DNA of 64,000 nucleotides from contig CAWJGT010000023.1 of assembly GCA_963842525.1 (NCBI GenBank), positions 128,001 through 192,000 of the forward strand, given 5' to 3'. The position numbers were made by a program, and so were the translations under genes. This document shows positions 2,016-49,549 of this stretch, in pieces. Each line of letters starts with the position of its first letter. Within the stretch, counting starts at the first letter, position 1. The notes beneath the pieces are model-generated. The model made no database searches. It was not told the DNA's origin and saw nothing but the letters and a program-made list of their open reading frames with translations. The DNA is from an uncultured Holophagales bacterium (GTDB taxonomy: Bacteria > Acidobacteriota > Thermoanaerobaculia > Multivoradales > UBA5704).

Positions 2016-7413
<5,398 letters not shown>

Positions 7414-27984: not shown

Positions 27985-28024
27985 TGGTTTTCTCTATTGG
28001 GACCCTGAATGCTACGTTCCGCAC

Positions 28025-28121
28025 AGTGTATGTGTAGAGCGGCATCGATGTCAAGGGAAAGGGCAGGAATTCCGGGTTTTCCGAGAGGGGATTGCTTATG
28101 CGGCTAGCGACACCGTATCAT
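28025..28121. promoter_or_regulatory. Divergent sigma70-type promoters for alpA (-) and XRE repressor (+)
   Basis: Minus: TTGACA(28054-28049)-18nt-TACACT(28030-28025); plus: TTGCTT(28092-28097)-18nt-TATCAT(28116-28121), ATG 6 nt later. Confidence 0.65.
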
Positions 28122-28127
28122 GTTGGT

Positions 28128-28508
28128 ATGGCTGCTAAAGATCCCTTTGAAGGACTTGGACAAGCGCTCGCCCGACTCCGGGAGTGGCGCGGCTTCGCGA
28201 CGCAGACGGATGCGGCAGAGGCCCTTGGCTTCGACAAGGGTCAGTTGTCGCGCTGGGAGAGTGAGAAACCTCGGCCCACTCTCGAGAACCTCGGCCGCCT
28301 GCTTGCGGCCTACGGAGTCGGCCTGGCGGACCTGGTGGCTCTCTTGGAGGAGGTCCGCCGGCCGAAGCGGAAGACACTGGATCGATTGGCCTATGACGCC
28401 GAGATGGCCCGGTTGAGCGAGTTGCTTCGGCAGATGGAGGAGAACCAGGCCGAAGCAAAGAGCCGATTGAAGACGCTCGAGGGGCTGTTGTATGAGAGCA
28501 AGGGATAG
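28128..28508 (+). CDS. XRE-family HTH repressor with coiled-coil tail
   Basis: LARLREWRGFATQTDAAEALGFDKGQLSRWESEKPRPTLENL. Confidence 0.88.
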   Translation: MAAKDPFEGLGQALARLREWRGFATQTDAAEALGFDKGQLSRWESEKPRPTLENLGRLLAAYGVGLADLVALLEEVRRPKRKTLDRLAYDAEMARLSELLRQMEENQAEAKSRLKTLEGLLYESKG

Positions 28509-28519
28509 CCTGCCGGGCC

Positions 28520-28751
28520 GAAAGGGTGCACTCCGCTGCACCCTTTTCCGAGAAAGGGTGCAATGGGCTGCGCCCTTTTCTGCCGAAAGGGCGCAATGGG
28601 CTGCGCCCTTTTCCCGAGAAAACGCGCGCTTGGCCGCACCTTTTCCGCGAGAAACGCGCGGCGGGCCGCGCTTTTTTCCGCGAGAAAACGCGCAGTGGGC
28701 CGCGCCTTTTTCCACGAGAAACGCGCGGCTTATAGGTTGAATGTCGGACAG
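28520..28751. repeat. Tandem array of ~7 imperfect palindromes (~32-bp period) ending in a 22-bp conserved box
   Basis: Units such as GAAAGGGTGCA-N6-TGCACCCTTTTC; TTATAGGTTGAATGTCGGACAG at 28730-28751. Confidence 0.8.
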
Positions 28752-28969
28752 GGCCAGGCCCTATCTCTACCTGGAAAAGAGCTGGGCGGCTGGGACGGAC
28801 ATGGAGGGTCTTCGGGCGGAGCTTCTATGTGGACCACCGGTGTCAAGCGTCTCAGGGTTGTTCGTCCTCCCCTCCTTTTTGGGTGGTTTCGCCGAGGGCT
28901 TCTGCATCGCGTTGGGGCGTTTGGTCTCCCTTTCAGTTTCTGGCGCTTGCCGGTGTGCCAGGACCTGGT

Positions 28970-29130
28970 CGTCCTTTCCAGCTTCTATCCGTGCTGACCT
29001 CACCTTTGGGTCAGGCACCAAATGCAGCATGCGCTGCGAGCGACTCAGGCAAGCTTTAGGAGCGGCCCCATCTGAGGAAAACGGTTCGGAAGCCCGAACC
29101 AAGCTCCGCCCCGGGCACGCTCCACCAGTC
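28970..29130 (-). ncRNA. Putative bridge RNA/seekRNA (target- and donor-binding loops); ends approximate
   Basis: Minus strand has GGGCGGAGCT (29111-29102) and CTCAG (29076-29072) around hairpin GGTTCGG/CCGAACC, matching the insertion site; ATAGAAG (28988-28982) is complementary to donor junction CTTCTAT. Confidence 0.75.
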
Positions 29131-29182
29131 TTTCTCGGAGACCTCCCCTCTTGTCCCTCCTTACCTGGAATTCTGTTCCAGA

Positions 29183-30310
29183 CTACTTGGTCTTCAGCTC
29201 AGCACCATCAGGAATCACTCCGTAGTCCAGATAGCGCCACAGCGCGATCAGCAGCTTGCGGGCCAGGGCCACGATCCCCACCCGCCGAGAACGGCGACTC
29301 CCAGGGCCATAGCGCTCCCGAAACCACAAGCTCAGGCGGCTCTGCGGTTGGAAGCGCAACCATCCCCAAGCGATCTCGATCGCCATCACCCGGATCCGGC
29401 GATTCCCCGCCTTGCTGATCCCCTGTTCGATGTTGACCGTGTCACCACTCTGATAAGGCATCGGCGCCAGACCCGCCAAACCGGCCACCTCTCGACGGTT
29501 GCGGAACTGCCGCCAACCGAAGAATTCCACCACGAACAGCCAACCACTGCTGTCCCCAATCCCCTTGAGCTTTTGCAGCCGCTGCACCTTTTCCGTCGCT
29601 TCCACTGTGGCCTTCTGGCGAAATCGTTCGACCGCTGCAATCTGACTCTCCAGAAGAGCCAGCCGCTCGCCCTCTCGCCTCAGACGCTCCCGCAAGCTCG
29701 AAAGCAGCCTCTCGCCGTTCCACTGCGTCGCCTGATCCAACTGCTGCAGGAAGCCCTTGCCGACCTTCACTCCCCGAGCCCCCACGCTGGCCAGCAGGCC
29801 CTTGATCCGATTCGTGTGGGCCGTCCGCTCCTGCTTCAGCGACTCAAGCTCCCGGGCCAGGTGACGCTCATCCTCCTGCTCGGGCGTCGGCGCGTGCGCC
29901 ACCCCGAACACCTTCTTCTCCCCGCGCTCGTAACGGATCAACAATGACAGCAACTTCTCCACGTCCACCCCATCCGTCTTGGCCCGCCGATGCCGCCGAT
30001 TCACCTCGATGCTCGAGGAGTCCATGACGACGTTTTCCACTCCTTCCGACAGCAGGAACCGATGCAACCAGAACCCATCCCGCCCGGCCTCGTAGCAACT
30101 CACCACCCGAGCCGACTCCGGCACGCCGAGGCGATGCTTGGCCCGAGCGATCTCCAGCATCAGCCCGTTCAGATCGCCGGCCGCAACCGTCCGCTGACTC
30201 GCCTTGCGTCCAGCCTCCACACCAAACCCCAGCCTCCACTCGCTGGCGCCGAGCTCCAGGGCCATGTGCAACACCGCCTCCGTTCGCGTAGACTCGGTCG
30301 TCTGGTTCAT
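29183..30310 (-). CDS. IS110-family DEDD recombinase/transposase
   Basis: ALELG, CYEAG, KTDGVD, GLAPMPYQSG, ISKAGNRRIR, VALARKL; AAAGGAG RBS. Confidence 0.95.
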   Translation of the reverse strand: MNQTTESTRTEAVLHMALELGASEWRLGFGVEAGRKASQRTVAAGDLNGLMLEIARAKHRLGVPESARVVSCYEAGRDGFWLHRFLLSEGVENVVMDSSSIEVNRRHRRAKTDGVDVEKLLSLLIRYERGEKKVFGVAHAPTPEQEDERHLARELESLKQERTAHTNRIKGLLASVGARGVKVGKGFLQQLDQATQWNGERLLSSLRERLRREGERLALLESQIAAVERFRQKATVEATEKVQRLQKLKGIGDSSGWLFVVEFFGWRQFRNRREVAGLAGLAPMPYQSGDTVNIEQGISKAGNRRIRVMAIEIAWGWLRFQPQSRLSLWFRERYGPGSRRSRRVGIVALARKLLIALWRYLDYGVIPDGAELKTK

Positions 30311-30559
30311 CGGGGTTCTCCTTTCTAACCCGTTAAAGTTCCCCGAAACATACAACCGGCGACCCGCTTTTGCATCCCCCCTCGCCCTGCATAGCATCTG
30401 AGATGGACCGGCGTAGCGGTAGGGCCTCAACTGCCCGCCTGGATACTCCCAAAAAACGTGCACTCGGCTTCCCCTTTTCTTGAAAAGGTGCAATGGGCTT
30501 CACCTTTTCCTGGGGTGCTTGCAAGAGAGCGCCGGCCTCTCTAGGCTGAGCGGCTCAGA

Positions 30560-31993
30560 ATGAACGTTGATCTCTGGCCGCATCGGCTCTTCTGGATGGG
30601 GGATCCTCGGGCGGTGGCGTTTTTCAGTGTGAAAGTCCCGGTTGACGAGCTGGGACCCTGGCCCTGGGAGGAGTGGCGCCCCTGGCAGCAACGCTCGACA
30701 TCCACGAAGCTGCTCGATGGATGGTTCGGGAACAACAAGCAGCACCTCCGCCGCGACTCCTTCGCCGCTAGCAACCGCTTCTATGGCTGGCACCGCGCCC
30801 AGGAGTATGTCGTCCGCCTGGGTGCGACTTTTGTGGACATCGATTGTGGCCGCAGCGCCTTCGACCTTTCGGCCCTGGAGGCCGCGGACATTCTGGTCGG
30901 GCTCGTGGATCTCGGCTTGCTGGTGCAGCCTTCGATGTTCCAGTTCTCTGGCCGGGGCTTGTGGGCCTTCTGGCTCCTCCGCGACGAGGAAGACTCGAGC
31001 ACGACTCCTTTCGCGAACGCCCACAACCGGGAGCTGTGGACGTCGCTCCAGCAGCACACGGCCGACACGATCGCGGAGGCTTTCCCGAGCCTGAAGCTGG
31101 ACCGGCCGGCGGGCGAGCTCACCCGCGTGACTCGGCTGCATGGAAGTGTGAATCCCGCGGCTGGCCGGCGAGTGCGTTACGAGCTGCTCCCGAATGCGGC
31201 CGGCGAGCCGGTCCGCTACAGCCTGGAGGAGCTGGCCGATTTCTACGGCCTGTGGCGGCCTGGCCGTCTCCGGCCTCTCGACGAAGCCGAGGAGGACCGG
31301 CGAGATCTGGCGCTCGAAGCCCACCGCAGGCGAGAGGACGCGCGGGAGGAGGAACGCCAGCGGAAGGAGGCCGTCCAAGCAGGGGGCGGTCCGAGCCACT
31401 CGGAGCGGGGACGGCAGGGACACGTGAAGCTCTGGCGAAATCGGTTGCGCTTCCTCGATCGGGTGCGGGACGAAATCTATGGCGGTGTGATCCCCTGCGG
31501 CCACCGGTACCACATGCTCTCCGCCTATGCCTACTGCTACGCGAAGCTGATGCAGGATTTTTCGGAGCTGGCGGGCAAGGTGGCGACGATCGGCCGCAAG
31601 TACTGCGCGCAGCCGGCGGGAGACTTGATCACGGACGCCGAGCTGCGGCGGATCACGGCGCACGCCCTGGGATGGGCTCGGAGCGGGCACCAGATCACGA
31701 ATCGGAAGCTCGCGGCCTTTGCGGGCCTCGATCCGGTGGCGGACCGGGAACGGATTGAGCGGCTCGGCTTGAACCTCTCGACCGGCCCCAAAGGTCGGAA
31801 CGAGCGAACGCAGGCGCGGCGCGAGTTGGCGCGGGAGATTCTTCGGGCGGCGCTCGATCGCGGCGAAGATCCGCCAAGCGCGCGGAAGCTCGCGCAGGTT
31901 CTCACGGATCAGGGGTGCGCCACCGGGCGATCGACTGCGCATGCGCTCCTGGTGGAGCTTTCGGCGGAGCTCGGGCGCGGAGATGGCCCGTAG
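30560..31993 (+). CDS. AEP-superfamily primase-like replication protein with C-terminal HTH
   Basis: FVDID (motif I), FSGRGLWAFW (motif II, His replaced), RVTRLHGSVN (motif III), helical PriCT-like segment, PSARKLAQVL HTH. Confidence 0.7.
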   Translation: MNVDLWPHRLFWMGDPRAVAFFSVKVPVDELGPWPWEEWRPWQQRSTSTKLLDGWFGNNKQHLRRDSFAASNRFYGWHRAQEYVVRLGATFVDIDCGRSAFDLSALEAADILVGLVDLGLLVQPSMFQFSGRGLWAFWLLRDEEDSSTTPFANAHNRELWTSLQQHTADTIAEAFPSLKLDRPAGELTRVTRLHGSVNPAAGRRVRYELLPNAAGEPVRYSLEELADFYGLWRPGRLRPLDEAEEDRRDLALEAHRRREDAREEERQRKEAVQAGGGPSHSERGRQGHVKLWRNRLRFLDRVRDEIYGGVIPCGHRYHMLSAYAYCYAKLMQDFSELAGKVATIGRKYCAQPAGDLITDAELRRITAHALGWARSGHQITNRKLAAFAGLDPVADRERIERLGLNLSTGPKGRNERTQARRELAREILRAALDRGEDPPSARKLAQVLTDQGCATGRSTAHALLVELSAELGRGDGP

Positions 31994-32094
31994 ACGCGGC
32001 GTTTTTCAGTGTACGCGCTTGCGCCGAAGGGCGCGGACGGCCATATAGGGCATGATTTGGGTTCCAGGTTCGCTACCGCGACACCCTGCCCCCT

Positions 32095-32355
32095 TTATAG
32101 GTTAAATGTCGGACAGCCAGCCGGGCGCGAACCGGCACGCGACTCGGCCGGGGAAACGACTTCAGGGGAAAAAGGTGGCGCTCGGCCGCCCCCTTTTGCG
32201 CAGAAAGGTGGTGGCCGGCCGCCACCTTTTCGACCCCACGCACGTGCTCGGGCGAGCACGCGACTCGGCCGGGGGAAACGACTTCAGGGGAAAAAGGGTG
32301 CGCTCAGCCGCGCCCTTTCGGGCTGAAAGGGTGCGCTCTACCGCGCCCTTTTCGA
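32095..32355. repeat. 22-bp box plus palindrome array with duplicated ~40-bp unit
   Basis: TTATAGGTTAAATGTCGGACAG at 32095-32116; CACGCGACTCGGCCGGGGAAACGACTTCAGGGGAAAAAGG twice; AAAGGGTGCG-N-CGCGCCCTTT hairpins. Confidence 0.8.
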
Positions 32356-32357
32356 CC

Positions 32358-33653
32358 TCACGCACGCGCCCGGGCGAGGGTGGCAGCGACTTCGCGGGCC
32401 AGATCGGCGGTGGCGGTTTCGCGGCGGGCGGCTTCCTGGAAAACGAGGAGGGCGGCCAGGGCTTCGCGGGAGATGTCCAGGTCTCGGAAGACGGTCACTG
32501 TCTCGTCGGCCAGGTGGCGGACTTCGGTGGCCTCCCCCTCTTCCATGTAGGAGATCGCCAGATCCAGGGCGGCGAGGGCGGCGTCGAAGGCGTTGCCGTC
32601 GTCGAGGAACTTCTGGCGGACCTCGGCCAGGAGATCGCGGGCCCGGACTTGGTCTCCCAGGCCGGCGACGATGCGGCCCTCCACCCAATCCAGACGGACT
32701 CGGTCGAGAGCGCTTCCGTGGGCTGCGGCTACCGCCTTCAGTTCTGGCAGAAGGTCGGCCGCCTCTTGATGTCGGCCGGCCTTCGACAGGCTGTCCACCA
32801 GGTTGTGGCGAACACAGAGGACGAGACGCGGCTCCCGGGCCGGGTCTATGAGTCCGTTTGCCTTCCTCAAGGCCTCGATGGCGGCCTCAGGTTCGCCCAA
32901 CTCGATGAGCGCTCCGGCTTTCAAGATGAGACTTCGGCCGGCGAGGTGCGGATCCCGGTGCTCGGGTTGGCCCTCCAGGAAGAGGGCCACGGCCTGGTCG
33001 AGCAGCTCGAAGGCTTCGGGAAAGCGGCGCTGCGCCACGCGAAGGGAGGCCTTCAGGTCCAGGAGGACAGGCTCGTAGCCGAGGGCGTCTTCGGAATCCT
33101 CGGTTCCCGCCTCCCACCAGGAGTCCGACATCTCGAAGCACCGCTCGCCTGCGGGCAGATCGCCCTGCACTCGGCGGGCGTTGCCGAGCCCGGCCCAGGC
33201 AAGGCTTCGGAGCTGGTAGACCCAGCGCTCCTCGAATAGCTCGCTGTCCGAGATCCTGTCCGCCACGTGGACGGCGAGGTCAGCGAGGTGGAGGGCCTCC
33301 GCCGGCTGCTCCGGCGCGGTCTGGCAGCTCCTGCGGACCAGCAGCTCGCAGAGACCCCAGCTCACGAAGCGCGGGTCGGCGTGGAGGCGGGCCAGGCGGT
33401 CCTCCGGATCGAGCGGCGCGAGCTCCTGCAGGAGCCGGGGGGCCTCGGCCTTGGACCGGGCGAGGGCCGCGTCGATTGGACCAAAAACAGGAGGGAGGGC
33501 GTTGGCCTGGTGAAGCTCGAGGAGCCAGCCGCCGACCTCTCTACAGCGGGGACAGAGGTCCAGCAGGTGGAAGAGTTGCTCATTCTGCTCCGCCGTCCGA
33601 TCCGTGGCGAGCAGACGCTCCAAAGCGGCGGCGTCGAGGTGCTTGTGCTCCAT
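32358..33653 (-). CDS. TPR-like helical-repeat protein with N-terminal HxxxxCxxC motif
   Basis: MEHKHLD..HLLDLCPRC; AWAGLGNARRVQGD and further TPR-like helices; GAGGGG RBS. Confidence 0.8.
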   Translation of the reverse strand: MEHKHLDAAALERLLATDRTAEQNEQLFHLLDLCPRCREVGGWLLELHQANALPPVFGPIDAALARSKAEAPRLLQELAPLDPEDRLARLHADPRFVSWGLCELLVRRSCQTAPEQPAEALHLADLAVHVADRISDSELFEERWVYQLRSLAWAGLGNARRVQGDLPAGERCFEMSDSWWEAGTEDSEDALGYEPVLLDLKASLRVAQRRFPEAFELLDQAVALFLEGQPEHRDPHLAGRSLILKAGALIELGEPEAAIEALRKANGLIDPAREPRLVLCVRHNLVDSLSKAGRHQEAADLLPELKAVAAAHGSALDRVRLDWVEGRIVAGLGDQVRARDLLAEVRQKFLDDGNAFDAALAALDLAISYMEEGEATEVRHLADETVTVFRDLDISREALAALLVFQEAARRETATADLAREVAATLARARA

Positions 33654-33726
33654 GCGATCCCCTCCTCGGATTGTTCTCGGCGGAGAATAATAGCGTAGGT
33701 GCGGAACATCGAGAAGGCTGATGGCG

Positions 33727-33760
33727 AAAATGCGGGCCGGAAAACCGCCGCCCGGCCCGC
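33727..33760 (-). terminator. Probable terminator after the peptide gene
   Basis: GCGGGCCGG...CCGGCCCGC stem followed by ATTTT on the minus strand. Confidence 0.55.
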
Positions 33761-33768
33761 AAGCACGC

Positions 33769-34050
33769 TCAAGGACGGCCGTTGGGATCGAGGATGGAGC
33801 CGTTTTCGCTGCCGGGCTCGGAGCTCGTGCTGGCGCCGCTCGACTCAAGGGCGGAGCCGGTCTCGCTCCAGATGGCGGAGAGGAAGCTCCAGAGCTGGGC
33901 GAAGAGGCCCGGGGTTGTCTGGGAGTGCTCGGAGGTTGAGTGGATGGTGTGGCCCAGGGGCAGGGCCTTGGCGTGGGCGGGGGCGAGGAGGATAAGGGCC
34001 AGCAGGGCGAGGGTGAGGATGAACAGGGGACGGGTGGGGTGTCGGGGCAT
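33769..34050 (-). CDS. 93-aa secreted peptide ending in GSILDPNGRP
   Basis: MPRHPTRPLFILTLALLALILLAPAHA signal peptide; tail ETGSALESSG..ENGSILDPNG; GAGG RBS. Confidence 0.75.
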   Translation of the reverse strand: MPRHPTRPLFILTLALLALILLAPAHAKALPLGHTIHSTSEHSQTTPGLFAQLWSFLSAIWSETGSALESSGASTSSEPGSENGSILDPNGRP

Positions 34051-34127
34051 TTGGACCTCGTGAGGGCCGCCACGGCTGCGGCCGCCATGGCCGGAGGGGG
34101 CGAGGCCTTCAGGAGGAAGTGTGCGCT

Positions 34128-34237
34128 GCCCTACCTGGAACAGAGCTGAGATGTGGGGGACGGACACAGAGAGACTTCGGGCGGAGCTGCGAGAGGCCGG
34201 CGTGGCGGTAGGGCCGCAACTGCCCGCCTGGATGCGG
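34128..34237 (+). repeat. Repeat R2 (empty)
   Basis: GCCCTACCTGGAACAGAGCTG..GGGCGGAGCTGCG..CAACTGCCCGCCTGGATGCGG. Confidence 0.85.
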
Positions 34238-34351
34238 GGGAGTGGCCGAGGGGCGAAGGGCACCCTTGGCGGGTGAGGGGCCTCACCCAGGAGCAGATAC
34301 ACTGGGAGCTGTAGATCGACCGGCGCCGTGGCGTCGAAGAGGGTGGCATGA

Positions 34352-34527
34352 TCGGGCGGACCTGAGTGGGGGCCGGCGTGGCGGTAGGGGCCTCAACTGC
34401 CCGCCTAGAACTCCACGGAGGGCCGGAGGACACGGGAGCTTACCCCCGGGCCGGCTGCGATAGCCGCCCTCGGGAGGAAACGGGTGGCACGTATTCCGGG
34501 CGCACCTATCCCGGGCACCTATCCCGG
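34352..34527 (+). repeat. Repeat R2b (3' half plus extension shared with 41295-41440)
   Basis: GGGCGGACCTGAGTGGGGGCCGGCG..AACTCCACGGAGG..ACGGGAGCTTAC..GAGGAAACGGGTGGCAC.. Confidence 0.8.
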
Positions 34528-34775
34528 GGTGAGCGCGTGGAAACATGGAGTCCCGCGCTATCGTTCTTCGCCTCCCCCTGTCCTGCTAAACATCTGGTAT
34601 CATTGCAGTGCAGGGCAGTCTTTAGCAGGCGTTAAATTTGTCGCAGAGCCTGGAAGAAGGGCGCCGCAGAGTGCCCTCGGGTTCTGCGAAGCCTGCTGGA
34701 ATTGGGAGTACAGCATCAAGTGCGAAGAGGCTTAGGGGTAACCGGGTGCCACTCCCAGGGCCTTCGGACTGATCA

Positions 34776-35240
34776 TTGAGGAGACAATGCTTGTGCCCAG
34801 AGGACGCTGAAAAGTCTACCTCTCGAACAACTAGCGCAGGAGGTGTGGTTCTCAACCGCGAGGACCACGTTCTAGTTGTAAAGCAAAGAGATGATACTTG
34901 GTCCCTTCCCAAGGGCCATGTAGAACCAGGCGAAGATGTTCTCACCGCTGCACGCAGGGAGATTCTTGAAGAGACTGGATTACGCGAATTACTCTATATT
35001 GCGCCGTTGGGCTCGTACACTCGGCTGAAGAAATTCTCAAGCAGATACAACGGCCCAGAATTGAAAACCATCCATATGTTTCTATTTCGAACTCAAGAGG
35101 AAGAACGCCTGAGTCCGCACGACAAAGACAATCCTGAAGCGAAATGGGTCTCTAAAGAGCACGGTGGCCAAGCTTCTTTCCTACCAAGAGGACTGCGATT
35201 TCTTTCTTGGCATCGTCAGCGGAATCTAGGTACTTACTAG
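34776..35240 (+). CDS. Nudix hydrolase (Ap4A-hydrolase-like); probable indels near both ends
   Basis: SAGGVV, WSLPKGHVEPGEDVLTAARREILEETGL Nudix box; alternative frame after ~35163 gives VAKLLSYQEDCDFF. Confidence 0.85.
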   Translation: MRRQCLCPEDAEKSTSRTTSAGGVVLNREDHVLVVKQRDDTWSLPKGHVEPGEDVLTAARREILEETGLRELLYIAPLGSYTRLKKFSSRYNGPELKTIHMFLFRTQEEERLSPHDKDNPEAKWVSKEHGGQASFLPRGLRFLSWHRQRNLGTY

Positions 35241-35276
35241 ATACTTTATGCGAGACGCCGCTAGGAGAAACATTGA

Positions 35277-36248
35277 ATGAGTCGACTTATTATTGTAGGT
35301 GGTGCCTCTGGAGCTGGAAAATCATTTTTGCTACAAAACATTGCACTACTCGATCTCACTGTGGTAGTCGTTCGTAAATTGACAACAAGAAAGCCTCGGC
35401 CCTACGAAAGCGCTAGCGGACCGGTTGAAGATCTAGAACTCAGCACGCCGTTAGCGAGCGTCAAGCAATGCGACTATGTCTATCAATATGGCAAAGACTG
35501 GTACGGCGCGCGGCGGCAGGACATCAAACAGGTCCTCTTGGCGGGGAAAAACCCGATTCTCATAGTTCGAAACTGCAGGACTATACATAAGATTCTGCAC
35601 GATTTCCCAGGCGCACTGGTTGTCTATCTTCAATCTGGATTGAGCGGTGACGATCTCAAGGAAAAGCTTCTAGAACAGGGGCGTCAAGATATCGACATCG
35701 ACGAAAGGATGCGACGGAATCTGGCCGACTTTAACGAATATGTTCGTCACATCTACTTGTTTCGTCATGTCCTAATAAATTTTTTCGATGATCTTCTATT
35801 GGATCAAATGCAGGCTATCCTTCAGTATGAGATAACCGATGACGATATTTTGCCAGATTTCGTTTTTGTGTTGATGTCATTCAATCCCGATTTTACAAGT
35901 GTGTACAAAGCTATGTGCGCGGCGGGCATGCTGGTTAAAGGGCGGACCCTGCGCGTGGAGCGCATAGACGCAAAGCTCGGTGATTACAAGATAACAAATG
36001 AGGTGCTTCGCAGTATAAGAAGATCTGCACTTATTCTTTGCGAGGTCTCAGAGGAGCGACCCAATGTTTACTATGAACTTGGCTATGCCCGGGGGCTCGG
36101 AAAGACAGTAATTCCTTGCGCCAGAGCTGGAACAACTCTTCCCTTCGATGTCAAAGACTTTCGTACTATTTTCTACTCCGACCCAATCGATCTACAGGAA
36201 AAACTAGTGGCGGAGTTCATCGCCGCCTTCAACGGAAGTGAGAAATGA
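35277..36248 (+). CDS. Guanylate-kinase-like P-loop domain fused to nucleoside 2-deoxyribosyltransferase-like domain
   Basis: GGASGAGKS, TTRKPRPYE, YQYGKDWYG; C-terminal FVLMSF..RPNVYYELGYARGLGK..LPFDV. Confidence 0.8.
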   Translation: MSRLIIVGGASGAGKSFLLQNIALLDLTVVVVRKLTTRKPRPYESASGPVEDLELSTPLASVKQCDYVYQYGKDWYGARRQDIKQVLLAGKNPILIVRNCRTIHKILHDFPGALVVYLQSGLSGDDLKEKLLEQGRQDIDIDERMRRNLADFNEYVRHIYLFRHVLINFFDDLLLDQMQAILQYEITDDDILPDFVFVLMSFNPDFTSVYKAMCAAGMLVKGRTLRVERIDAKLGDYKITNEVLRSIRRSALILCEVSEERPNVYYELGYARGLGKTVIPCARAGTTLPFDVKDFRTIFYSDPIDLQEKLVAEFIAAFNGSEK

Positions 36249-37582
36249 GGAATACAGCGCAAGGCTTTAGAGATCGCTTCGCTGATGCTCAGGCGTCGAT
36301 TATTATTCTTGGCACCAACCCCCTTATTCCATTTCTTGAAAGTAGCGCGCAATTTTTCGCAGATCTTCTGACTCTTCGAACAAAGCTCAGGCTGAGCATT
36401 CTCTACGAGAGCGACAGCGAGAACTTCAGCCAGTCTTTGTGTGTCGATACTCAGCACTCGGAGAACAGATTTTCATACGAGTCACTTCGAGTTCACAGAA
36501 ATAGAATAAGCGGGACAAAGAAAGAAGGTGAAGGTGGAATTTTTTTAGAGATTGGCGAGTGTTTGAGTGACGACATGCTGAGAAAAGCGGTCCTGAGACG
36601 CGTAACCCTTCGACAGGTCAACTTGAGGCTCCCGCTCAATATCATTTCGGTCGACAGCCGACTATGGTTCTGCGTAGTTACCAATTCCATGCCCGTTATA
36701 GAAGACTATATCGAAATTAAGAAAAATGATCCATTGTATCTGGTCGTTACTGATTTTCTTGATTTTTATACTGACCAGGGAAAAGGAGGGATATATCTTT
36801 CCCAGCCGAAGGAAGAGTTAATCCAGCTTTATGACAAGGAGGCCTACCCTAGGGGTATATTCCCGAGGGCCTGCTTCTACACAACCGAATTTCAGCGTTT
36901 CTCCATCTGGGGTTTCATCTTTAACCGAAGAGGGAAACTGTTGCTGCATAAGCGCAGCATGGCTACTAAAGACGGTCGCGGTCTATGGGATAAGTCAGTC
37001 GGAGGACATGTTGACTTGCTTGATTCGTCAACCTTCATCACGGCCCAACGCGAGTTGGTAGAGGAACTTTTCTTGCCCGAGGCGGAATATTCAAAGCATG
37101 TTCGTGCGGATCTCGGAGACATCATAAACTTTGGCGATTGGAATCCCACAAAACGACCTGAACGTGTATTCAAAAATGCCTTCGCCGGCCTTGGCGCCGC
37201 AGATTGGATTCAGTTTCGCGCAACAGATGGAAAGGGAGAGCCCCTTACGGTGACACGAGTTTCTAACCGAAGAATCCATAGGGACGACGGAAGCGTCAGG
37301 ATTAAAAAAACCGTGTTTAGGAGCGATGTATATTTGTTCATAGCTCCTCCGGAATACTTGGATACTGATGAGCAGATGCGACGGTTGCTCGAAATAGCCG
37401 AACAGAAAGGCGCGGCTTCGGATCACAGGTTGATATCCGTTGGTGACTTCAGGAAGTGGATCGACGATACCGAAAAGGAGGGAAAATCAGATGAAATCTT
37501 CACTGACGACCTGTTATTCATTAATGTTAGTCACCGCAACCTGCTGGAACAATTCGCAGAATTCGTAACGTTCATGTTTTAG
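36245..37582 (+). CDS. Unknown N-terminal domain (possibly PLD-fold-like) fused to IDI-like Nudix domain
   Basis: LLLHKRSMATKDGRGLWDKSVGGHV..AQRELVEEL; start overlaps previous stop (ATGA). Confidence 0.7.
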   Translation: MRNTAQGFRDRFADAQASIIILGTNPLIPFLESSAQFFADLLTLRTKLRLSILYESDSENFSQSLCVDTQHSENRFSYESLRVHRNRISGTKKEGEGGIFLEIGECLSDDMLRKAVLRRVTLRQVNLRLPLNIISVDSRLWFCVVTNSMPVIEDYIEIKKNDPLYLVVTDFLDFYTDQGKGGIYLSQPKEELIQLYDKEAYPRGIFPRACFYTTEFQRFSIWGFIFNRRGKLLLHKRSMATKDGRGLWDKSVGGHVDLLDSSTFITAQRELVEELFLPEAEYSKHVRADLGDIINFGDWNPTKRPERVFKNAFAGLGAADWIQFRATDGKGEPLTVTRVSNRRIHRDDGSVRIKKTVFRSDVYLFIAPPEYLDTDEQMRRLLEIAEQKGAASDHRLISVGDFRKWIDDTEKEGKSDEIFTDDLLFINVSHRNLLEQFAEFVTFMF

Positions 37583-37595
37583 GTGGAGGCAAGCT

Positions 37596-38972
37596 GTGAG
37601 TGGGTGCTTGTACATCCTAACGGGCGCGTCAGGGTGTGGAAAGACGACGCTCTTAAACAGCGTCTGTTCAGGGGCTCTGCAGAAGAAGTATTCAGCAGTT
37701 AAGGCTCCGAAGTACTCGGAACGATCATCGCGCGGGCCGGATGATGATATAGAAACTGTCGAGCGAGTGGAACTCGGGGCCTTCGATCTTGCCTATGTAA
37801 TCAATGGTATCCGATATGGAATACGCATCAGAGATATAGAGGTTCAGATTGAAGCAGGGAAAAACTCATTTATAATACTGAGCGACTTCCGAATTGTCCG
37901 ACGTCTGAAGGCTATGCTCCATCACCGAGCGAAGGCTATATATATAGCGTCCAGTGTTGATACAAGAAGAATTGAAGCCATTCAAGAGGCCCGGTACGGA
38001 TTCAATCCAGACCCCAAACAGCGAAAGCGACTTCAAGTTCAGTTCTCTAGACTGGAGAGCGCTGCTCGCCTCGGTTTATGGAGAAGCGTTTTTGAATGCA
38101 TGGGAGAGCTAGCCAATGACTGGCGAGAGTTTATTCCTGAGGCCAAGTCGACGGAGATCAGAGCGCAAAAGATCCGCGCATTTCATAACAGGTACATCGA
38201 TAACCTGCATCTTTTTGATCACGTTCTGTTGAATTACAACCAAGGTCACCCAGAGGAAATGACAGAGCAGTTGGTTAATATTTTGAAGTGTTCATCCACG
38301 AGAAGGCCCCGGATAAATAGCCGACCAGTTCTGTTTGTTGTAGCCGCTTCTTCGGGTGCAGGCAAAGGCACCCTAATGGAAACACTCAATATGATAGGGA
38401 GAGATCAGGTTGCGATCGTAACCAAAATGGCTCGACGCGACCCGAAGACAAATGACAGAAGAGATGGAATGGTGGCAATTGGGAAAGACGGAGTGTTTCC
38501 TGAAGTATTTGATATGCATTGGACCTTCCATGAGCCGATGCGAAAGCCCACGAAGCGGGGGCGTCGAGAATTAGTGGAGGCCGGAGATGGACAATCCGAC
38601 AGGAGAGAAATGGAGAAATATGCAGGTACGGAGTACGCGATAGGCACAAAGGAAGTGAGAGATAATTTTGAACGCGGGGTTCAGCAGATTGTTATTTCTA
38701 ACATGAAACAGTTCCCGCGATTCCGTGAGTTGTTTGGAGAAAAAGTTGTTTTCCTTTACCTTCATCGATTGGTTAGCGCAAAGGAAATCCGACGTTTTCA
38801 ACTCGAGAATTGCGAAACAAAGGATGAAGCACTCCAGAGGATATTCGAGATTCGCGAAGTACATAAAGATTATATGAAAAAGATAGCTGAGTTCAACCAT
38901 GTCCTTTTGAATACAGCTTATAGAGAAGATCTATTTGACCAGATGTTCCAACTAATTGATTTTTACCGATAA
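37596..38972 (+). CDS. Tandem guanylate-kinase-like P-loop protein
   Basis: TGASGCGKT + KYSERSSR + YVINGIRYG + FDHVLLN; second AASSGAGKG + KMARRDPK + EYAI + FNHVLLN. Confidence 0.75.
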   Translation: MSGCLYILTGASGCGKTTLLNSVCSGALQKKYSAVKAPKYSERSSRGPDDDIETVERVELGAFDLAYVINGIRYGIRIRDIEVQIEAGKNSFIILSDFRIVRRLKAMLHHRAKAIYIASSVDTRRIEAIQEARYGFNPDPKQRKRLQVQFSRLESAARLGLWRSVFECMGELANDWREFIPEAKSTEIRAQKIRAFHNRYIDNLHLFDHVLLNYNQGHPEEMTEQLVNILKCSSTRRPRINSRPVLFVVAASSGAGKGTLMETLNMIGRDQVAIVTKMARRDPKTNDRRDGMVAIGKDGVFPEVFDMHWTFHEPMRKPTKRGRRELVEAGDGQSDRREMEKYAGTEYAIGTKEVRDNFERGVQQIVISNMKQFPRFRELFGEKVVFLYLHRLVSAKEIRRFQLENCETKDEALQRIFEIREVHKDYMKKIAEFNHVLLNTAYREDLFDQMFQLIDFYR

Positions 38973-39369
38973 CAGGAACCTTCTGAGTTTCGCGGGAGTC
39001 TTTTCTGGCATTGGAGAGCCGGCTATGCCTGGCCCCTCACCCTCGGGCCACCTCTCCCACTCGCACTCACACCCGCGCGGGAGAGGGGGCGCAAAGACCG
39101 CAAGGACGACTCCAAGGGGGCGGGTAGATGTGCGGTTGCTGCTGGATCGGCTGGTGTCGCGGACGCTGGAGGTATGACTGACGGCGCGGCCGGCGGGACA
39201 ATTCGTGCGTGCGGGCGCTGACCGCGGGGGTGGTGCGCGAGATCCTTTACTGACGGTGGGCAGAGGTGAAGGAGCCCTTGGAAGGGCGGCGGGGGGAGAA
39301 GGGTGGAAGTTGGCCGGCCGGCGGTGGAGACGGATATGGGAGGAGTTCGGTGAACTCGTGCCAAACGCA

Positions 39370-39660
39370 ACCGGGCGCTTCTCTGGCGGGGCCGCGGCCG
39401 TATCGGCGGGAGATCAAGGTGCTCTCTGTCGCCGAGGTGGGCCGGCTGCTTTGGGGTGAGGTGCCGGGGACTCTTCCGCGGGATCCGCGGGAGATGCGGG
39501 ACCGGGTGTTGCTGGGGGTCGCATATGTGGCGGGGCTTCGCCCCCACCGACCAAGACACAGGACGGACGCGGACTGTGGCAGGGACAGGCACGGACGGCG
39601 GCTCGGCTGCGGGGCTTCGGTGCGCCGTGAGGTTTGGCCTTGGCCGCTCGGCCTGGCTTT
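39370..39660 (+). pseudogene. XerC/D-like tyrosine recombinase remnant
   Basis: IKVLSVAEVGRLL..RDRVLLGVAYVAGLR resembles box I; HxxR and Tyr motifs absent; reads in frame into repeat R3. Confidence 0.6.
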
Positions 39661-39866
39661 GCCCTACCTGGAGCAGAGCTGGGATGCTGGGACGGATACG
39701 GAGGGTGCTCGGGCGGAGCTTCTATGTGGACCACCGGTGTCAAGCGTCTCAGGGTTGTTCGTCCTCCCCTCCTTTTTGGGTGGTTTCGCCGAGGGCTTCT
39801 GCATCGCGTTGGGGCGTTTGGTCTCCCTTTCAGTTTCTGGCGCTTGCCGGTGTGCCAGGACCTGGT

Positions 39867-40027
39867 CGTCCTTTCCAGCTTCTATCCGTGCTGACCTCAC
39901 CTTTGGGTCAGGCACCAAATGCAGCATGCGCTGCGAGCGACTCAGGCAAGCTTTAGGAGCGGCCCCATCTGAGGAAAACGGTTCGGAAGCCCGAACCAAG
40001 CTCCGCCCCGGGCACGCTCCACCAGTC
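39867..40027 (-). ncRNA. Putative bridge RNA/seekRNA, copy 2
   Basis: Same sequence as 28970-29130. Confidence 0.75.
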
Positions 40028-40079
40028 TTTCTCGGAGACCTCCCCTCTTGTCCCTCCTTACCTGGAATTCTGTTCCAGA

Positions 40080-41207
40080 CTACTTGGTCTTCAGCTCAGC
40101 ACCATCAGGAATCACTCCGTAGTCCAGATAGCGCCACAGCGCGATCAGCAGCTTGCGGGCCAGGGCCACGATCCCCACCCGCCGAGAACGGCGACTCCCA
40201 GGGCCATAGCGCTCCCGAAACCACAAGCTCAGGCGGCTCTGCGGTTGGAAGCGCAACCATCCCCAAGCGATCTCGATCGCCATCACCCGGATCCGGCGAT
40301 TCCCCGCCTTGCTGATCCCCTGTTCGATGTTGACCGTGTCACCACTCTGATAAGGCATCGGCGCCAGACCCGCCAAACCGGCCACCTCTCGACGGTTGCG
40401 GAACTGCCGCCAACCGAAGAATTCCACCACGAACAGCCAACCACTGCTGTCCCCAATCCCCTTGAGCTTTTGCAGCCGCTGCACCTTTTCCGTCGCTTCC
40501 ACTGTGGCCTTCTGGCGAAATCGTTCAACCGCTGCAATCTGACTCTCCAGAAGAGCCAGCCGCTCGCCCTCTCGCCTCAGACGCTCCCGCAAGCTCGAAA
40601 GCAGCCTCTCGCCGTTCCACTGCGTCGCCTGATCCAACTGCTGCAGGAAGCCCTTGCCGACCTTCACTCCCCGAGCCCCCACGCTGGCCAGCAGGCCCTT
40701 GATCCGATTCGTGTGGGCCGTCCGCTCCTGCTTCAGCGACTCAAGCTCCCGGGCCAGGTGACGCTCATCCTCCTGCTCGGGCGTCGGCGCGTGCGCCACC
40801 CCGAACACCTTCTTCTCCCCGCGCTCGTAACGGATCAACAATGACAGCAACTTCTCCACGTCCACCCCATCCGTCTTGGCCCGCCGATGCCGCCGATTCA
40901 CCTCGATGCTCGAGGAGTCCATGACGACGTTTTCCACTCCTTCCGACAGCAGGAACCGATGCAACCAGAACCCATCCCGCCCGGCCTCGTAGCAACTCAC
41001 CACCCGAGCCGACTCCGGCACGCCGAGGCGATGCTTGGCCCGAGCGATCTCCAGCATCAGCCCGTTCAGATCGCCGGCCGCAACCGTCCGCTGACTCGCC
41101 TTGCGTCCAGCCTCCACACCAAACCCCAGCCTCCACTCGCTGGCGCCGAGCTCCAGGGCCATGTGCAACACCGCCTCCGTTCGCGTAGACTCGGTCGTCT
41201 GGTTCAT
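40080..41207 (-). CDS. IS110-family DEDD recombinase/transposase
   Basis: Same protein as 29183-30310. Confidence 0.95.
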   Translation of the reverse strand: MNQTTESTRTEAVLHMALELGASEWRLGFGVEAGRKASQRTVAAGDLNGLMLEIARAKHRLGVPESARVVSCYEAGRDGFWLHRFLLSEGVENVVMDSSSIEVNRRHRRAKTDGVDVEKLLSLLIRYERGEKKVFGVAHAPTPEQEDERHLARELESLKQERTAHTNRIKGLLASVGARGVKVGKGFLQQLDQATQWNGERLLSSLRERLRREGERLALLESQIAAVERFRQKATVEATEKVQRLQKLKGIGDSSGWLFVVEFFGWRQFRNRREVAGLAGLAPMPYQSGDTVNIEQGISKAGNRRIRVMAIEIAWGWLRFQPQSRLSLWFRERYGPGSRRSRRVGIVALARKLLIALWRYLDYGVIPDGAELKTK

Positions 41208-41451
41208 CGGGGTTCTCCTTTCTAACCCGTTAAAGTTCCCCGAAACATACAACCGGCGACCCGCTTTTGCATCCCCCCTCGCCCTGCATAGCATCTGAGT
41301 GGGGGCCGGCGTAGCGATGCGGCTTCAACTGCCCGCCTGGAACTCCACGGAGGACCGGAGGCCACGGGAGCTTACGCTCGGGCCGGCAGCCCCTCCCGAG
41401 GAAACGGGTGGCACCTATTCCGGCAGCACCTATTCCGGCAGAACACGGACG

Positions 41452-41691
41452 GGCACGGCGACTCGGCCGGCCGGGAACGGCTTCAGGGGAAAAAGGGTGC
41501 GCTCTACCGCACCCTTTCGGGCTGAAAGGGGGCGCTCTACCGCACCCTTTTTCGAGGTGCCCTTGCCCCTCGGCTTGGCTTTGTCCTACCTGAAGTAGAG
41601 CTGAGATGCTGGGACGGACACGGAGGGCGCTCGGGCGGAGCTCAGGGTGGCCGGCGTGACGGCAGGGCCTCAACTGCCCGCCTGGATGCGG
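41452..41691 (+). repeat. Palindrome array followed by repeat R4 (empty)
   Basis: CGACTCGGCC..CTTCAGGGGAAAAGGGTGCGCTCTACCGCACCCTTT like 32258-32355; then CCTACCTGAAGTAGAGCTG..GGGCGGAGCTCAG..CAACTGCCCGCCTGGATGCGG. Confidence 0.85.
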
Positions 41692-41728
41692 GTCTGCCAG
41701 AGGAGGTAGGCCTCCGCCCCAGGCGAGG

Positions 41729-43783
41729 CTACTCCAGAAGGCTCTTGAGGAGGGCATCCCTTGCATCCACGTAGAACTGGATGCTCAGCTTGGCGGCCAT
41801 TTCGTCGGAGAGGTCCATGAGCTGCTTGCGCGCGGAGATGGAGACCAGGAGGGCTGAGGCCCCCTTCTCCACGGCCAACTCGGCGATGTTGACGGCGCCG
41901 TGGACTGGATCGATGGAGCCGCCGAGGTTGAGCTGGCCGACTACGATGAGTCCTCCTTTTACGTTTTTCTGGAGAAGAGCGCTGCAGAGCGCCAACAAGG
42001 CTGCCAGGCCGGTGGCGTTTCCACTTTTGGCGGTGTCGAAGGCTCGGAGCTGCACGGAGAACTCGTGAGAGCGGGGGTCACGGTCTCCCACCAGTTCCTT
42101 GGCGCGTGAGTAGAGGTTCTGCTCGGCGTACTTCACGCTCTCCCGGAAGGATGGCGGGGTGGGTGCATTCAAGATCCTGACTCCGGAGCCGGCTCCGACG
42201 GTGACGTCGATCCTGAAGAGACCGACCGGATCGTTGGCTCCGCCTGGGCTGATTGTCCAGATCTGACCCGGAGGCAGTGGATCGGGTCCGATCTCGTTCT
42301 CGCTCTGGAGCTCTGGGGTCGCCACGAACTTTTCGACGCCTTCCGTCCCGAGGTGATAGCTGAAGTGGGTGTTGCGGAACTCGGCCGAGCCGATCCGCTT
42401 TTGCTGCTCCTTGACGCGGCGCCGACACTCCAGGGCAAGTCGCACCGCCCACTCAAGGTCCTCGTCTGAGACCTGGGACTCTGGATTCGGAAAGACGAGC
42501 TTGAGCAGGCCGGTGACGGTCTTCTGAACGGCTGTGATGTCGCGGCCACTCAATGCCCCTCCCCAAAAGACGCGGTTTTGGAGAACACTTCCACGCCCTT
42601 GCATACGCACGCGGTGCCAACACTCGGAGAGGAAATCGCTCACGAGCCCGAAGTGGTTGGTGAAATGTTCCAGCGGGGAGAGCTTCGGAACGTCCCATCC
42701 GGCGAGATAGGCGTGGATCCGGTCCATGAAGGCGGTGTCGTTCCGCATCTCTGGAGGCAGGGGGCCGAGGAGGTGGCCGATCCGCTGTTGGTGCTCCACG
42801 TCCACGTCGAAGTTGCCGACCATGACGATGCCGCCGTCGGCGCGGATGCTCTCTTTTCCGCGGCTGAACTCGCCGGACTCCATGTAGCCCTTCATGATGT
42901 TGACGCCGTCCTTCTGGTCGAAGGAGACGCCGGAGACCTCGTCGAAGCAGACGACGTCGTACTGGCAGACGAGGCCCCGCTGGCCGGTCGCGTTGTTGAC
43001 GAACATCCGGGCCACCGTCGCCTTGCCGCCGGAGATGAGGTGGGCGTACGGCGAAACCTGCTGGAAGAGGTGGCTCTTGCCGGTGCCACGGGGGCCAAGC
43101 TCGACCATGTTGTAGTTGCGCTCGACGAACGGGACCATGCGCAGGAGCATTATGTCCTGCGCCCGGGGCGTGAGCGCTTCGGGCTCGAGGCCGATGCTGC
43201 GGAGCAGGAACCGCTTCCATTCCTCTGTGGAGAACAGCTCTCGGCCGCGGTAGAGTGGCTCCAAGATCTCGCGCTTGCAGAGCTGGATTTCGCGCAAGCT
43301 GACGACGCCGAATGGCCGGCCGTTCTTCTCCTGGGCGATGGCGGCGTCGTACTCGAGCTCCACCTCGGCGTAGAAGCCGCCGGTGAGCATGCGCTCGTTC
43401 TCGCTCACCAGCCGGCTGTCGATCCGCACGTCGTTGAGCTGCAGGCTCGGAAGGGTGACCAGGTAGGAATCGGTCTTGGCATCGAGCCGTGTCTGGACGA
43501 TGTCGATGATCTTGACCGATCCCTCTTCACGCGCACGGGCTTTGAACAGCTCCTCCTCGCCTGCACGGACCGTACGGTTTGAGAGCTGCCGCTCGACGAT
43601 CTGAAGACCTTCCTGGATCTCCTCTTCGTCGGTGCTGGCGCAGTAGCGGCCGAGCAGGAACTCCACGACGTAGGTCGGGACCGGATACTGGGCCTTGAAT
43701 TTGCGCACCAGGTCTTTGCGAACCACAAAGCCCTCGAAGGCCGTGGCCGCAAGCTGGTCGATGCCATCGAGCACGAAGATCAT
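41729..43783 (-). CDS. brxL: BREX Lon-like AAA+ protein BrxL
   Basis: VPTYVVEFLLGRYC, ELGPRGTGKS, FDEV, DTAFMDRIH, Lon-like C-terminal domain. Confidence 0.92.
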   Translation of the reverse strand: MIFVLDGIDQLAATAFEGFVVRKDLVRKFKAQYPVPTYVVEFLLGRYCASTDEEEIQEGLQIVERQLSNRTVRAGEEELFKARAREEGSVKIIDIVQTRLDAKTDSYLVTLPSLQLNDVRIDSRLVSENERMLTGGFYAEVELEYDAAIAQEKNGRPFGVVSLREIQLCKREILEPLYRGRELFSTEEWKRFLLRSIGLEPEALTPRAQDIMLLRMVPFVERNYNMVELGPRGTGKSHLFQQVSPYAHLISGGKATVARMFVNNATGQRGLVCQYDVVCFDEVSGVSFDQKDGVNIMKGYMESGEFSRGKESIRADGGIVMVGNFDVDVEHQQRIGHLLGPLPPEMRNDTAFMDRIHAYLAGWDVPKLSPLEHFTNHFGLVSDFLSECWHRVRMQGRGSVLQNRVFWGGALSGRDITAVQKTVTGLLKLVFPNPESQVSDEDLEWAVRLALECRRRVKEQQKRIGSAEFRNTHFSYHLGTEGVEKFVATPELQSENEIGPDPLPPGQIWTISPGGANDPVGLFRIDVTVGAGSGVRILNAPTPPSFRESVKYAEQNLYSRAKELVGDRDPRSHEFSVQLRAFDTAKSGNATGLAALLALCSALLQKNVKGGLIVVGQLNLGGSIDPVHGAVNIAELAVEKGASALLVSISARKQLMDLSDEMAAKLSIQFYVDARDALLKSLLE

Positions 43784-49533: not shown

Positions 49534-49549
49534 CAAGCCTGTCCTCTTG

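Follow-up and report, generated by a model that had tools for sequence, protein, structure and literature searches.

A four-gene operon of guanylate kinase-like, Nudix and NDT-like proteins as a candidate uncharacterised conflict system in an uncultured Holophagales bacterium

What might be the function of a compact operon that joins guanylate kinase (GK)-like, Nudix and nucleoside deoxyribosyltransferase (NDT)-like domains next to a BREX locus? We addressed this question for a stretch of 64,000 nucleotides (nt) from an uncultured Holophagales bacterium (assembly GCA_963842525.1, contig CAWJGT010000023.1, positions 128,001 to 192,000), hereafter the window, in which four genes, g1 to g4, follow one another. 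Altogether, our analysis points to an uncharacterised family of conflict systems, most likely anti-phage, of the abortive-infection type and acting on free nucleotides, a reading in which we place about even confidence. A first-pass annotation had described four tightly packed, co-oriented genes, AT-richer than their flanks, with three GK-like, two Nudix and one NDT-like domain, lying between repeats and near BREX. The packing and composition were borne out by the open reading frame (ORF) coordinates, by the spacing (36 nt between g1 and g2, a 4-nt overlap of g2 and g3, 13 nt between g3 and g4) and by a GC content that falls from 0.63-0.69 in the flanks to 0.46-0.48 between 35 and 39 kb; domain searches recovered all of the named domains, and the flanking repeats and a BrxL gene starting at 41729 were confirmed.

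To place the operon among related loci, 80 genome loci fetched by g2 and 80 metagenome loci fetched by g3 were compared, their ORFs being classified by local profile searches; dropping the duplicates L007 and L107 left 62 distinct loci with full g3. A GK-like ORF lies directly after g3 in 53 of the 54 loci that have at least 300 nt downstream; for the metagenome loci, where g3 was the only query, the count is 47 of 48. The gap from g3 to this ORF has a median of 2 nt, and 52 of 55 loci have a gap of 20 nt or less. The g2 architecture (GK-NDT) is present in 18 of the 26 loci evaluable on both sides, 12 times upstream of g3 and 6 times downstream of g4, and in 14 of 21 evaluable loci of the metagenome set. 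Because of these recurrence counts, the invariant family core is g3 followed directly by g4, and g2 is a common third part. The gene g1 is a lineage-specific accessory outside this core: a homologue in the same position was found solely in L003 (56% identity), and Nudix genes elsewhere stand after g4 (L101) or after a solo g2 (L014). Thus, of the four-gene order that had been claimed as conserved, g2-g3-g4 is indeed co-conserved, while g1 recurs in L003 alone and g2 is interchangeable. Since all family-invariant residues are kept in the four proteins and dozens of unrelated contigs repeat the gene order, the four-gene observation is more than chance.

Within a collection of 5.8 billion proteins, the family amounts to 193 matches for g2, 206 for g3 and 117 for g4, most of them unnamed or labelled "guanylate kinase", "NUDIX" or "hypothetical". 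Judged by title or name, members occur in Acidobacteriota, Bacteroidota, Bacillota, Gammaproteobacteria, Chloroflexota, Sumerlaeota, Thorarchaeota and Methanosarcina. A variant with a 685-amino-acid (aa) g3 and four or five GK-like modules was seen in L140 (4528-6453), preceded by a "GT4-conflict" glycosyltransferase (PF20706, 4.6e-47). Two loci labelled Saprospiraceae (L006) and Flavobacteriaceae (L007) agree exactly, over the whole system, in their ORF coordinates, in tblastn rows and in jackhmmer scores, which may reflect one contig binned twice or a very recent transfer.

The first core protein, g3, had been described as an unknown domain joined to a Nudix domain. The Nudix part stood (PF00293, 6.2e-7, 29.9 bits against a cut-off of 21.1). 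The first ~190 residues have no Pfam match, and their description as unknown gave way to a structural one: in the g3 model (predicted local distance difference test, pLDDT, 89.9) they resemble the C-domain of TrmBL2 (5bpd; Z 9.4, root-mean-square deviation (rmsd) 3.4, 129 residues aligned) and weakly match phospholipase-D (PLD) folds in Foldseek, and we tentatively assign them a PLD/TrmB-like ligand-binding fold. The C-domain fits Escherichia coli IDI (1hx3; Z 17.5, rmsd 2.4, 172 aligned) and the Nudix protein 2fkb (Z 14.8). Across the family alignment, E270, E273 and E274 are invariant and R269 almost so; the REUxEE part of the Nudix box is invariant, with Asp as its first acidic residue and a spacing one residue longer. 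The alignment also holds a WDKSxGGH motif, whose Gly falls where the presumed catalytic Cys of IDI sits (TNSxCxHP-type motif). As R-E-x-x-E-E is kept and the Cys position is Gly, g3 is read as a hydrolase-type Nudix protein and not as an isomerase. A role as type 1 IDI isomerase was rejected on the same Gly and on a score of 24.4 bits against the cut-off of 127 for the IDI equivalog NF002995. Of 1.84 billion cluster representatives, the g3 profile matched 85 at E up to 1e-30. Moreover, g3 modules are found in fusions with several partners: TPR in P0386, a STAND NTPase with TPR in P0387 and P0389, a Ser/Thr protein kinase in P0390 and, in P0425, a TIR domain of the CAP12/Pycsar type. Such architectures are usual for conflict systems.

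The second core protein, g4, consists of two GK-like halves. The N-half matches TIGR02322 (2e-9, below cut-off) and, by PDB profile search, guanylate kinase 3lnc (domain independent E-value 6.1e-9), with G10, G13, G15, K16, K39, R43, R46, D50 and D51 invariant. The C-half matches TIGR03263 (2.8e-8) and NF011325 (7.7e-8), a second stretch to 3lnc being weak (independent E-value 0.027); its invariant residues are G256, K257, K277, R281, D287 and D290. Both halves bear variants of the nucleoside monophosphate (NMP)-binding motif, and they are encoded by separate genes in L009, L015 and L067. On TIGR03263, whose cut-off is 160.45, g4 scores 33.6 bits. In all three GK-like domains, that of g2 and the two of g4, the P-loop Lys and the NMP-site Arg/Glu are invariant.

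The g2 protein starts with a GK-like domain that matches TIGR03263 (6.3e-12, 45.5 bits, below the same cut-off) and guanylate kinase in a PDB profile search (1e-12). In the g2 model (pLDDT 85.5), residues 1-188 adopt the guanylate kinase fold (Z 19.1, rmsd 2.7, 179 residues aligned to 2qor), and G12, G14, K15, T37, R38, R41, E44 and R144 are family-invariant, with a TTRxxRxxE-type NMP-binding motif. The true gmk of the genome lies elsewhere and reaches 218.8 bits on TIGR03263, compared with 45.5-46.8 for g2. The C-domain carries an NVYYELGYARG motif and matches DNPH1 in a PDB profile search (1.3e-4), its invariant E267 being aligned with the YELG Glu of DNPH1/Rcl, which we take to be the catalytic residue. 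Fold comparison gave Z 13.7 for MilB, 13.4 for TIRAP, 13.1-13.2 for NDTs, 12.2 for Rcl and 12.0 for SARM1. PADLOC model PDLC00733 ("Effector, TIR") matches this domain at 2.7e-12, and relatives of the domain carry TIR Pfam families; g2 itself matches no Pfam TIR family at E up to 1, nor the PADLOC dCTPase model. The PDB profile searches, which return Cap12 (E 0.065) as their one TIR protein, appear to favour the glycosidase side. Among genes of g2 type standing alone, one adjoins Gabija-like genes. Two solo homologues, in Sumerlaeota (L004, 4414-6248) and in a Methanosarcinales metagenome-assembled genome (L022, 4983-8950), are followed by an overlapping or close phosphoenolpyruvate (PEP)-utilising/pyruvate phosphate dikinase (PPDK)-like enzyme, a pair that may represent a separate two-gene association.

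The accessory gene g1 encodes a canonical Nudix protein (PF00293, 1.6e-22, 80.4 bits against a cut-off of 21.1), matched also by the PADLOC single-gene candidate model PDC-S07 (1.3e-7). Read from the translation, its Nudix box matches the consensus GX5EX7REUXEEXGU in full (G47-x5-E53-x7-R61-E62-I-L-E65-E66-T-G68-L), and TTG at 34791, preceded by AGGAG, seems a likelier start than 34776.

In eight evaluable loci that lack GK-NDT, other genes fill the third slot, and such genes also occur elsewhere as extras, several per locus in L113, L120, L127 and L130. They include a GK-like domain fused to dCMP deaminase (L011; PADLOC dCTPase, 1.2e-14), its GK domain being 40% identical to that of g2, a GK-NDT-deaminase protein (L009), a GK-like domain with HD (L130; PADLOC dGTPase, 7.6e-44), a dCTP-deaminase-like gene (L139) and a GK-Nudix protein (L113). 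A further group shares a C-terminal domain of ~200 residues, here called X, with the motifs YWGxR and PRHFxxxxDxxxYVGSYL; its N-terminal partners are two transmembrane helices (2TM; 8 proteins), SEFIR/TIR (L127) and HD-CE (L130). Each third-slot protein joins a putative regulatory domain, GK-like or X, to a predicted toxic domain, namely NDT-like, dCMP-deaminase, dGTPase-like HD, SEFIR/TIR or 2TM. In the ESM Atlas, the structural neighbours of X are DUF5919 models (TM-score 0.70-0.74); by features, the clusters nearest to the g3 N-domain (0.85-0.86) are those of X (0.92-0.93). A domain-limited hhalign of X against the g3 N-domain gave 153 collinear columns at E 0.0012, full-length hhalign of X-domain proteins against g3 gave no match (probability 0.5%), and a PDB sequence search with the X-protein profile returned 0 matches. 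The SEFIR-X protein of L127 matches PADLOC bSEFIR at 3.4e-67. At this ORF (2172-3317), the bSEFIR model covers residues 3-266, past SEFIR and into the start of X, and part of the SEFIR-X architecture may also exist in the validated single-gene bSEFIR.

The operon had also been placed in a defence setting, and the window does hold other conflict systems. A BREX locus begins 2.7 kb from the operon, with BrxL (41729-43783), PglZ (43780-46170), PglX, BrxC and BrxB. A second system, 16.7 kb away, comprises a SIR2_2 + TIR_2 protein (55682-57058), an NTPase of the nSTAND1 type (57055-58623) and, at 58400-61957, a large protein with WD40 repeats. In 35 sister loci, 100 of the 164 flanking ORFs were scanned, leaving out nine X-domain ORFs, five from the near-duplicate L104 and the 50 shortest; the PADLOC models for pAgo, SIR2-APAZ and the MADS gene mad2 each matched three ORFs, and those for type I methyltransferase and restriction endonuclease two each. 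Within the BREX locus, BrxC is divided between two ORFs that overlap, of which 49550-51919 corresponds to profile positions 408-1145 and 51738-53561 to positions 1-409, the latter ORF starting with a BrxB match over residues 1-110, and the PglX ORF covers profile positions 90-913 of 1125; the 46778-53561 part of the locus may be damaged.

The distribution of the family is patchy. A search of 40 relatives, of which 5 share the genus, 19 the family and 16 the order, did not find g3 in any of them. In many loci the operon island has a higher AT content than the host; in the closest relative, L003, it has 0.45-0.50 GC within a host of 0.61-0.68, and DNA homology with the window is confined to the coding part. 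Base composition and occurrence thus indicate that the operon was horizontally acquired. Searches for g3 found it in none of 50,697 GenBank phage records or 72,556 PLSDB plasmid records, and 0 of 54 candidate stretches in IMG/VR viral contigs were confirmed. For g2, the NDT-like part alone matches in phages and plasmids (35 and 61 matching records), no place covering 80% of the query. A prophage nucleotide-metabolism module was rejected, as these searches gave no viral copies. Altogether, a fixed core, swappable predicted toxic domains (including relatives of validated nucleotide-depleting defence enzymes), a defence-island context and a patchy, horizontally moved distribution form the signature of a defence system.

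The immediate surroundings of the operon (Table 1) are IS110 copies, a TPR protein and BREX. Two near-identical IS110-family copies (29183-30493 and 40080-41294) bracket the operon and form a direct repeat with an offset of 10897 nt, the elements in direct orientation being at 28740-30444 and 39637-41342, and repeat fragments at 34127-34514 are present again at 41296-41692. The low-GC island has a sharp right edge in 200-nt windows. Besides the operon, the bracket holds two high-GC, host-like genes (30560-31993 and 32358-34088). Arrays of palindromic units of ~33 nt each (GAAAGGGTGCA...GCACCCTTTTC), with 10 copies in family D2, surround the IS110 copies and look like REP-type elements. Terminator-like sites and promoters in the region are no more frequent than in shuffled sequence (4 against a mean of 4.9, and 4 against 4.2, respectively), Rfam gave 0 matches over 28000-42000, and there are 0 tRNA genes in 26000-56000.

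Table 1. Features of the operon and its surroundings, in window coordinates
Feature	Position	Strand	Extent or composition	Basis
g1	34776-35240	+	154 aa	ORF list
g2	35277-36248	+	323 aa	ORF list
g2 N-domain, GK-like P-loop	35277-35840	+	residues 1-188	TIGR03263, PDB profile, fold
g2 C-domain, NDT/DNPH1/MilB-like (TIR-related) predicted N-glycosidase, putative effector	35850-36245	+	residues 192-323	PF05014, PADLOC, fold
g3	36245-37582	+	445 aa	ORF list
g3 N-domain, PLD/TrmB-like fold, possibly DUF5919-like, putative ligand-binding module	36245-36808	+	residues 1-188	fold
g3 C-domain, IDI/YfcD-like Nudix, REUxEE kept	36800-37579	+	residues 186-445	PF00293, fold
g4	37596-38972	+	458 aa	ORF list
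g4 N-half, GK/PhnN-like P-loop kinase domain	37596-38300	+	residues 1-235	TIGR02322, PDB profile
g4 C-half, second GK-like P-loop, GAGKGT type	38301-38969	+	residues 236-458	TIGR03263, NF011325
Weak terminator-like hairpin directly 3' of the g4 stop	38980-38998	+		
Low-GC island with operon	about 34600-39000		38-54% GC (200-nt windows) vs 66-70% either side	
Palindromic-unit arrays	28509-28714, 30441-30512, 32192-32355, 41480-41553			

Does a described system account for these features? The statement that no named system fits held: PADLOC-DB v2.0.0 gave domain-level matches only, none of its models fits g3 or g4, 0 families match g3, and the matches to g4 are at the P-loop level (E 7.9e-6 or weaker, residues 5-68). 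A literature search in the full text of articles found no publication on a Nudix + GK-like + NDT system. The family is apparently undescribed. DcdV and the defensive dCTP deaminase are P-loop kinase + deaminase proteins in which both domains are required. Like these, g2 has an N-terminal P-loop kinase-like domain and a C-terminal putative nucleotide-degrading domain, and L011 makes the corresponding fusion with a dCMP deaminase. Unlike DcdV/AvcD, g2 carries an NDT/DNPH1-like domain instead of the zinc deaminase and is accompanied by g3-g4; no AvcI-like RNA was seen, there being no Rfam match and no conserved upstream DNA. Immune ATP nucleosidases are described as cleaving the N-glycosidic bond of (d)ATP, and such cleavage of free nucleotides as aborting infection. 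In this respect, g2 would resemble Cap17 (CBASS) and DtcC of Detocs as an abortive-infection effector with predicted N-glycosidic cleavage of free nucleotides, whereas its fold is of NDT/TIR type and not PNP_UDP_1, and the sensor and upstream logic differ.

With DNPH1/Rcl, MilB/BlsM and the NDTs, the g2 C-domain shares the fold (Z 12.2-13.7) and the aligned YELG Glu; unlike them, it falls below the PF05014 cut-off, is fused to a GK-like domain and ties with TIR folds. The family resembles CBASS, Pycsar, Thoeris and type III CRISPR in combining a fixed core with swappable TIR/SEFIR, 2TM, HD and nucleotide-degrading effectors, and differs from them in that g1-g4 include no cyclase, CD-NTase, Cas10 or signal-making TIR, the core being kinase-like + Nudix. 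Ring nucleases, in which the degrading enzyme shares a domain with the sensor of the effectors, offer a possible parallel for g3. Of the link to retrons suggested by the first-pass annotation, only the shared NDT/TIR-type domain, as found in retron effectors and seen in the PDLC00733 match, remained; a retron was rejected, as the four ORFs hold no reverse transcriptase domain and Rfam has no match in the region. Finally, g2 and g4 belong to the same P-loop kinase family as PhnN (ribose 1,5-bisphosphokinase) and guanylate kinase but score 23-46 bits against cut-offs of 156-160. The phosphonate PhnN context that had been raised was looked for and is absent, with TIGR02322 scores of 37.4 and 23.2 bits against 156 and no adjoining phn genes. 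Both the PhnN/phosphonate pathway and a housekeeping gmk were rejected on the low scores, the absence of adjoining phosphonate genes and the true gmk elsewhere.

On the precedents of DcdV/dCTP deaminase and the ATP nucleosidases, g2 may be read as a nucleotide-destroying effector and g3-g4 as its control module. We propose a model of the anti-phage system in which the GK-like domain of g2 would bind or phosphorylate a nucleotide and thereby control the DNPH1/MilB-like domain, which would break (deoxy)nucleoside phosphates at the N-glycosidic bond and so starve phage replication. Upon infection, g4 would produce a phosphorylated nucleotide ligand that g3 could bind and hydrolyse, acting as a threshold or off switch; effectors could sense the ligand by a core-domain copy that they have borrowed, and g1 would be an added Nudix trimming the same ligand or the nucleotide pool. 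The roles first proposed (GK-like domains sensing or phosphorylating, NDT cleaving nucleotides or NAD, Nudix resetting) are compatible with the comparative evidence as proposals. Carried further, g3-g4 could constitute a new immune signalling module in which g4 makes a kinase-made messenger, g3 buffers or destroys it and effectors read it via duplicated core domains, an extension that we consider doubtful. Its readers, as speculative as the module itself, would be the GK-like domain in g2 and a DUF5919-like domain in the 2TM, SEFIR and HD effectors.

Several points weigh against the anti-phage model. We found no experiment or phage phenotype for any family member, and the defence context of the sister loci, counted without a background control, is anecdotal. 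The relay in which g4 makes, g3 destroys and effectors read a ligand is pure inference from domain logic, and kinases normally build nucleotides rather than deplete them, so that a depletion scheme gives no account of their role. The kinship of X to the g3 N-domain is a weak lead (hhalign probability 19%; Atlas below 0.9). Pfam scores for g2 are below cut-off for both PF00625 (22.8 bits against 25.2) and PF05014, Nuc_deoxyrib_tr (8.5e-4, 19.9 bits against 28.8), and in its model an NDT-type glycosidase and a TIR-type NADase are tied by fold score (Z 12.2-13.7). Moreover, g2-like genes stand alone in six evaluable loci, so g2 may not need g3-g4.

The same genes could also be explained otherwise. 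In an enzyme cascade without a messenger, the Nudix domains of g3 and g1 would convert (d)NTP to (d)NMP and the DNPH1-like domain of g2 would split (d)NMP into base and sugar phosphate, draining the deoxynucleotide supply that the phage creates; the GK-like domains would bind, channel or reverse-phosphorylate, and the gate would be the surge of dNMP from host DNA degraded by the phage. The best sequence match of the g2 C-domain, the dNMP N-hydrolase DNPH1 with its aligned Glu, suits this scheme, as do the top fold match to MilB, a CMP-type N-glycosidase, the fully kept Nudix and kinase catalytic residues, the partnerless g2-like genes of some genomes and the sister loci with dCMP deaminase, dCTP-deaminase-like and dGTPase-like HD proteins, all acting on deoxynucleotides. 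We nevertheless consider it unlikely, since it does not account for the replacement of g2 next to g3-g4 by 2TM, SEFIR and HD-CE effectors, gives no reason for the non-catalytic X domain on these and leaves the direction of the kinase reactions unexplained. Those deoxynucleotide-acting alternatives also speak against a system based on NAD+ and ADP-ribose, in which the g2 C-domain would be a TIR-like NADase or ADP-ribosyl cyclase, the GK-like domains would phosphorylate ADP-ribose-derived products and the Nudix domains would cleave ADP-ribose derivatives. TIR folds do tie with NDTs (TIRAP, SARM1), the best PADLOC match of g2 is the TIR-labelled effector model, relatives of its C-domain carry TIR families, SEFIR/TIR proteins replace or join the module, and Nudix domains have been tied to NAD+ conflict systems in published work. 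However, the PDB profile searches return DNPH1 and NDT, with Cap12 as the only TIR, and the YELG motif around the Glu is of NDT/DNPH1 type, so that this version seems quite improbable to us.

Ordinary metabolism, either nucleotide salvage and catabolism or a nucleoside natural-product or modified-nucleotide pathway of MilB/BlsM type, would be suggested by the housekeeping or biosynthetic members that the GK, PhnN, Nudix, NDT and MilB families all have. It is very unlikely in view of scores far below the equivalog cut-offs in a genome with its own gmk, the absence of phn, transporter or tailoring genes adjoining the operon, the sporadic distribution (0 of 40 relatives) in low-GC islands with defence neighbours, and the replacement of g2 by 2TM, SEFIR and HD proteins and fusion of g3 to STAND/TPR and TIR. 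Equally remote in our view is a selfish addiction cassette, in which g2 would be a toxin neutralised by g3-g4, or a system directed against other mobile elements. Such a cassette would suit the position of the operon between IS110 copies, its horizontal mobility and the predicted toxicity of the effector-type domains, and DcdV/AvcD is itself described as a toxin-antitoxin system; however, a plain antitoxin would not usually retain enzyme-type invariant residues as g3-g4 do, and g3 is absent from the plasmid and phage records searched.

If the family is anti-phage, as we favour, its pairing of P-loop NMP-kinase-like domains with a Nudix enzyme would be a core chemistry new to prokaryotic immunity, and the family would link the single-protein nucleotide depleters (dCTP deaminase/DcdV, dGTPase) to a multi-gene architecture with swappable effectors. 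A DNPH1/MilB-like N-glycosidase effector would then represent a further route to the nucleotide starvation of phages. Should the messenger proposal also be true, second-messenger immunity in bacteria and archaea could be kinase-made and not cyclase-made. Because the family spans many bacterial phyla and archaea, the mechanism of one member would annotate a few hundred proteins that are now labelled "hypothetical" or "guanylate kinase".

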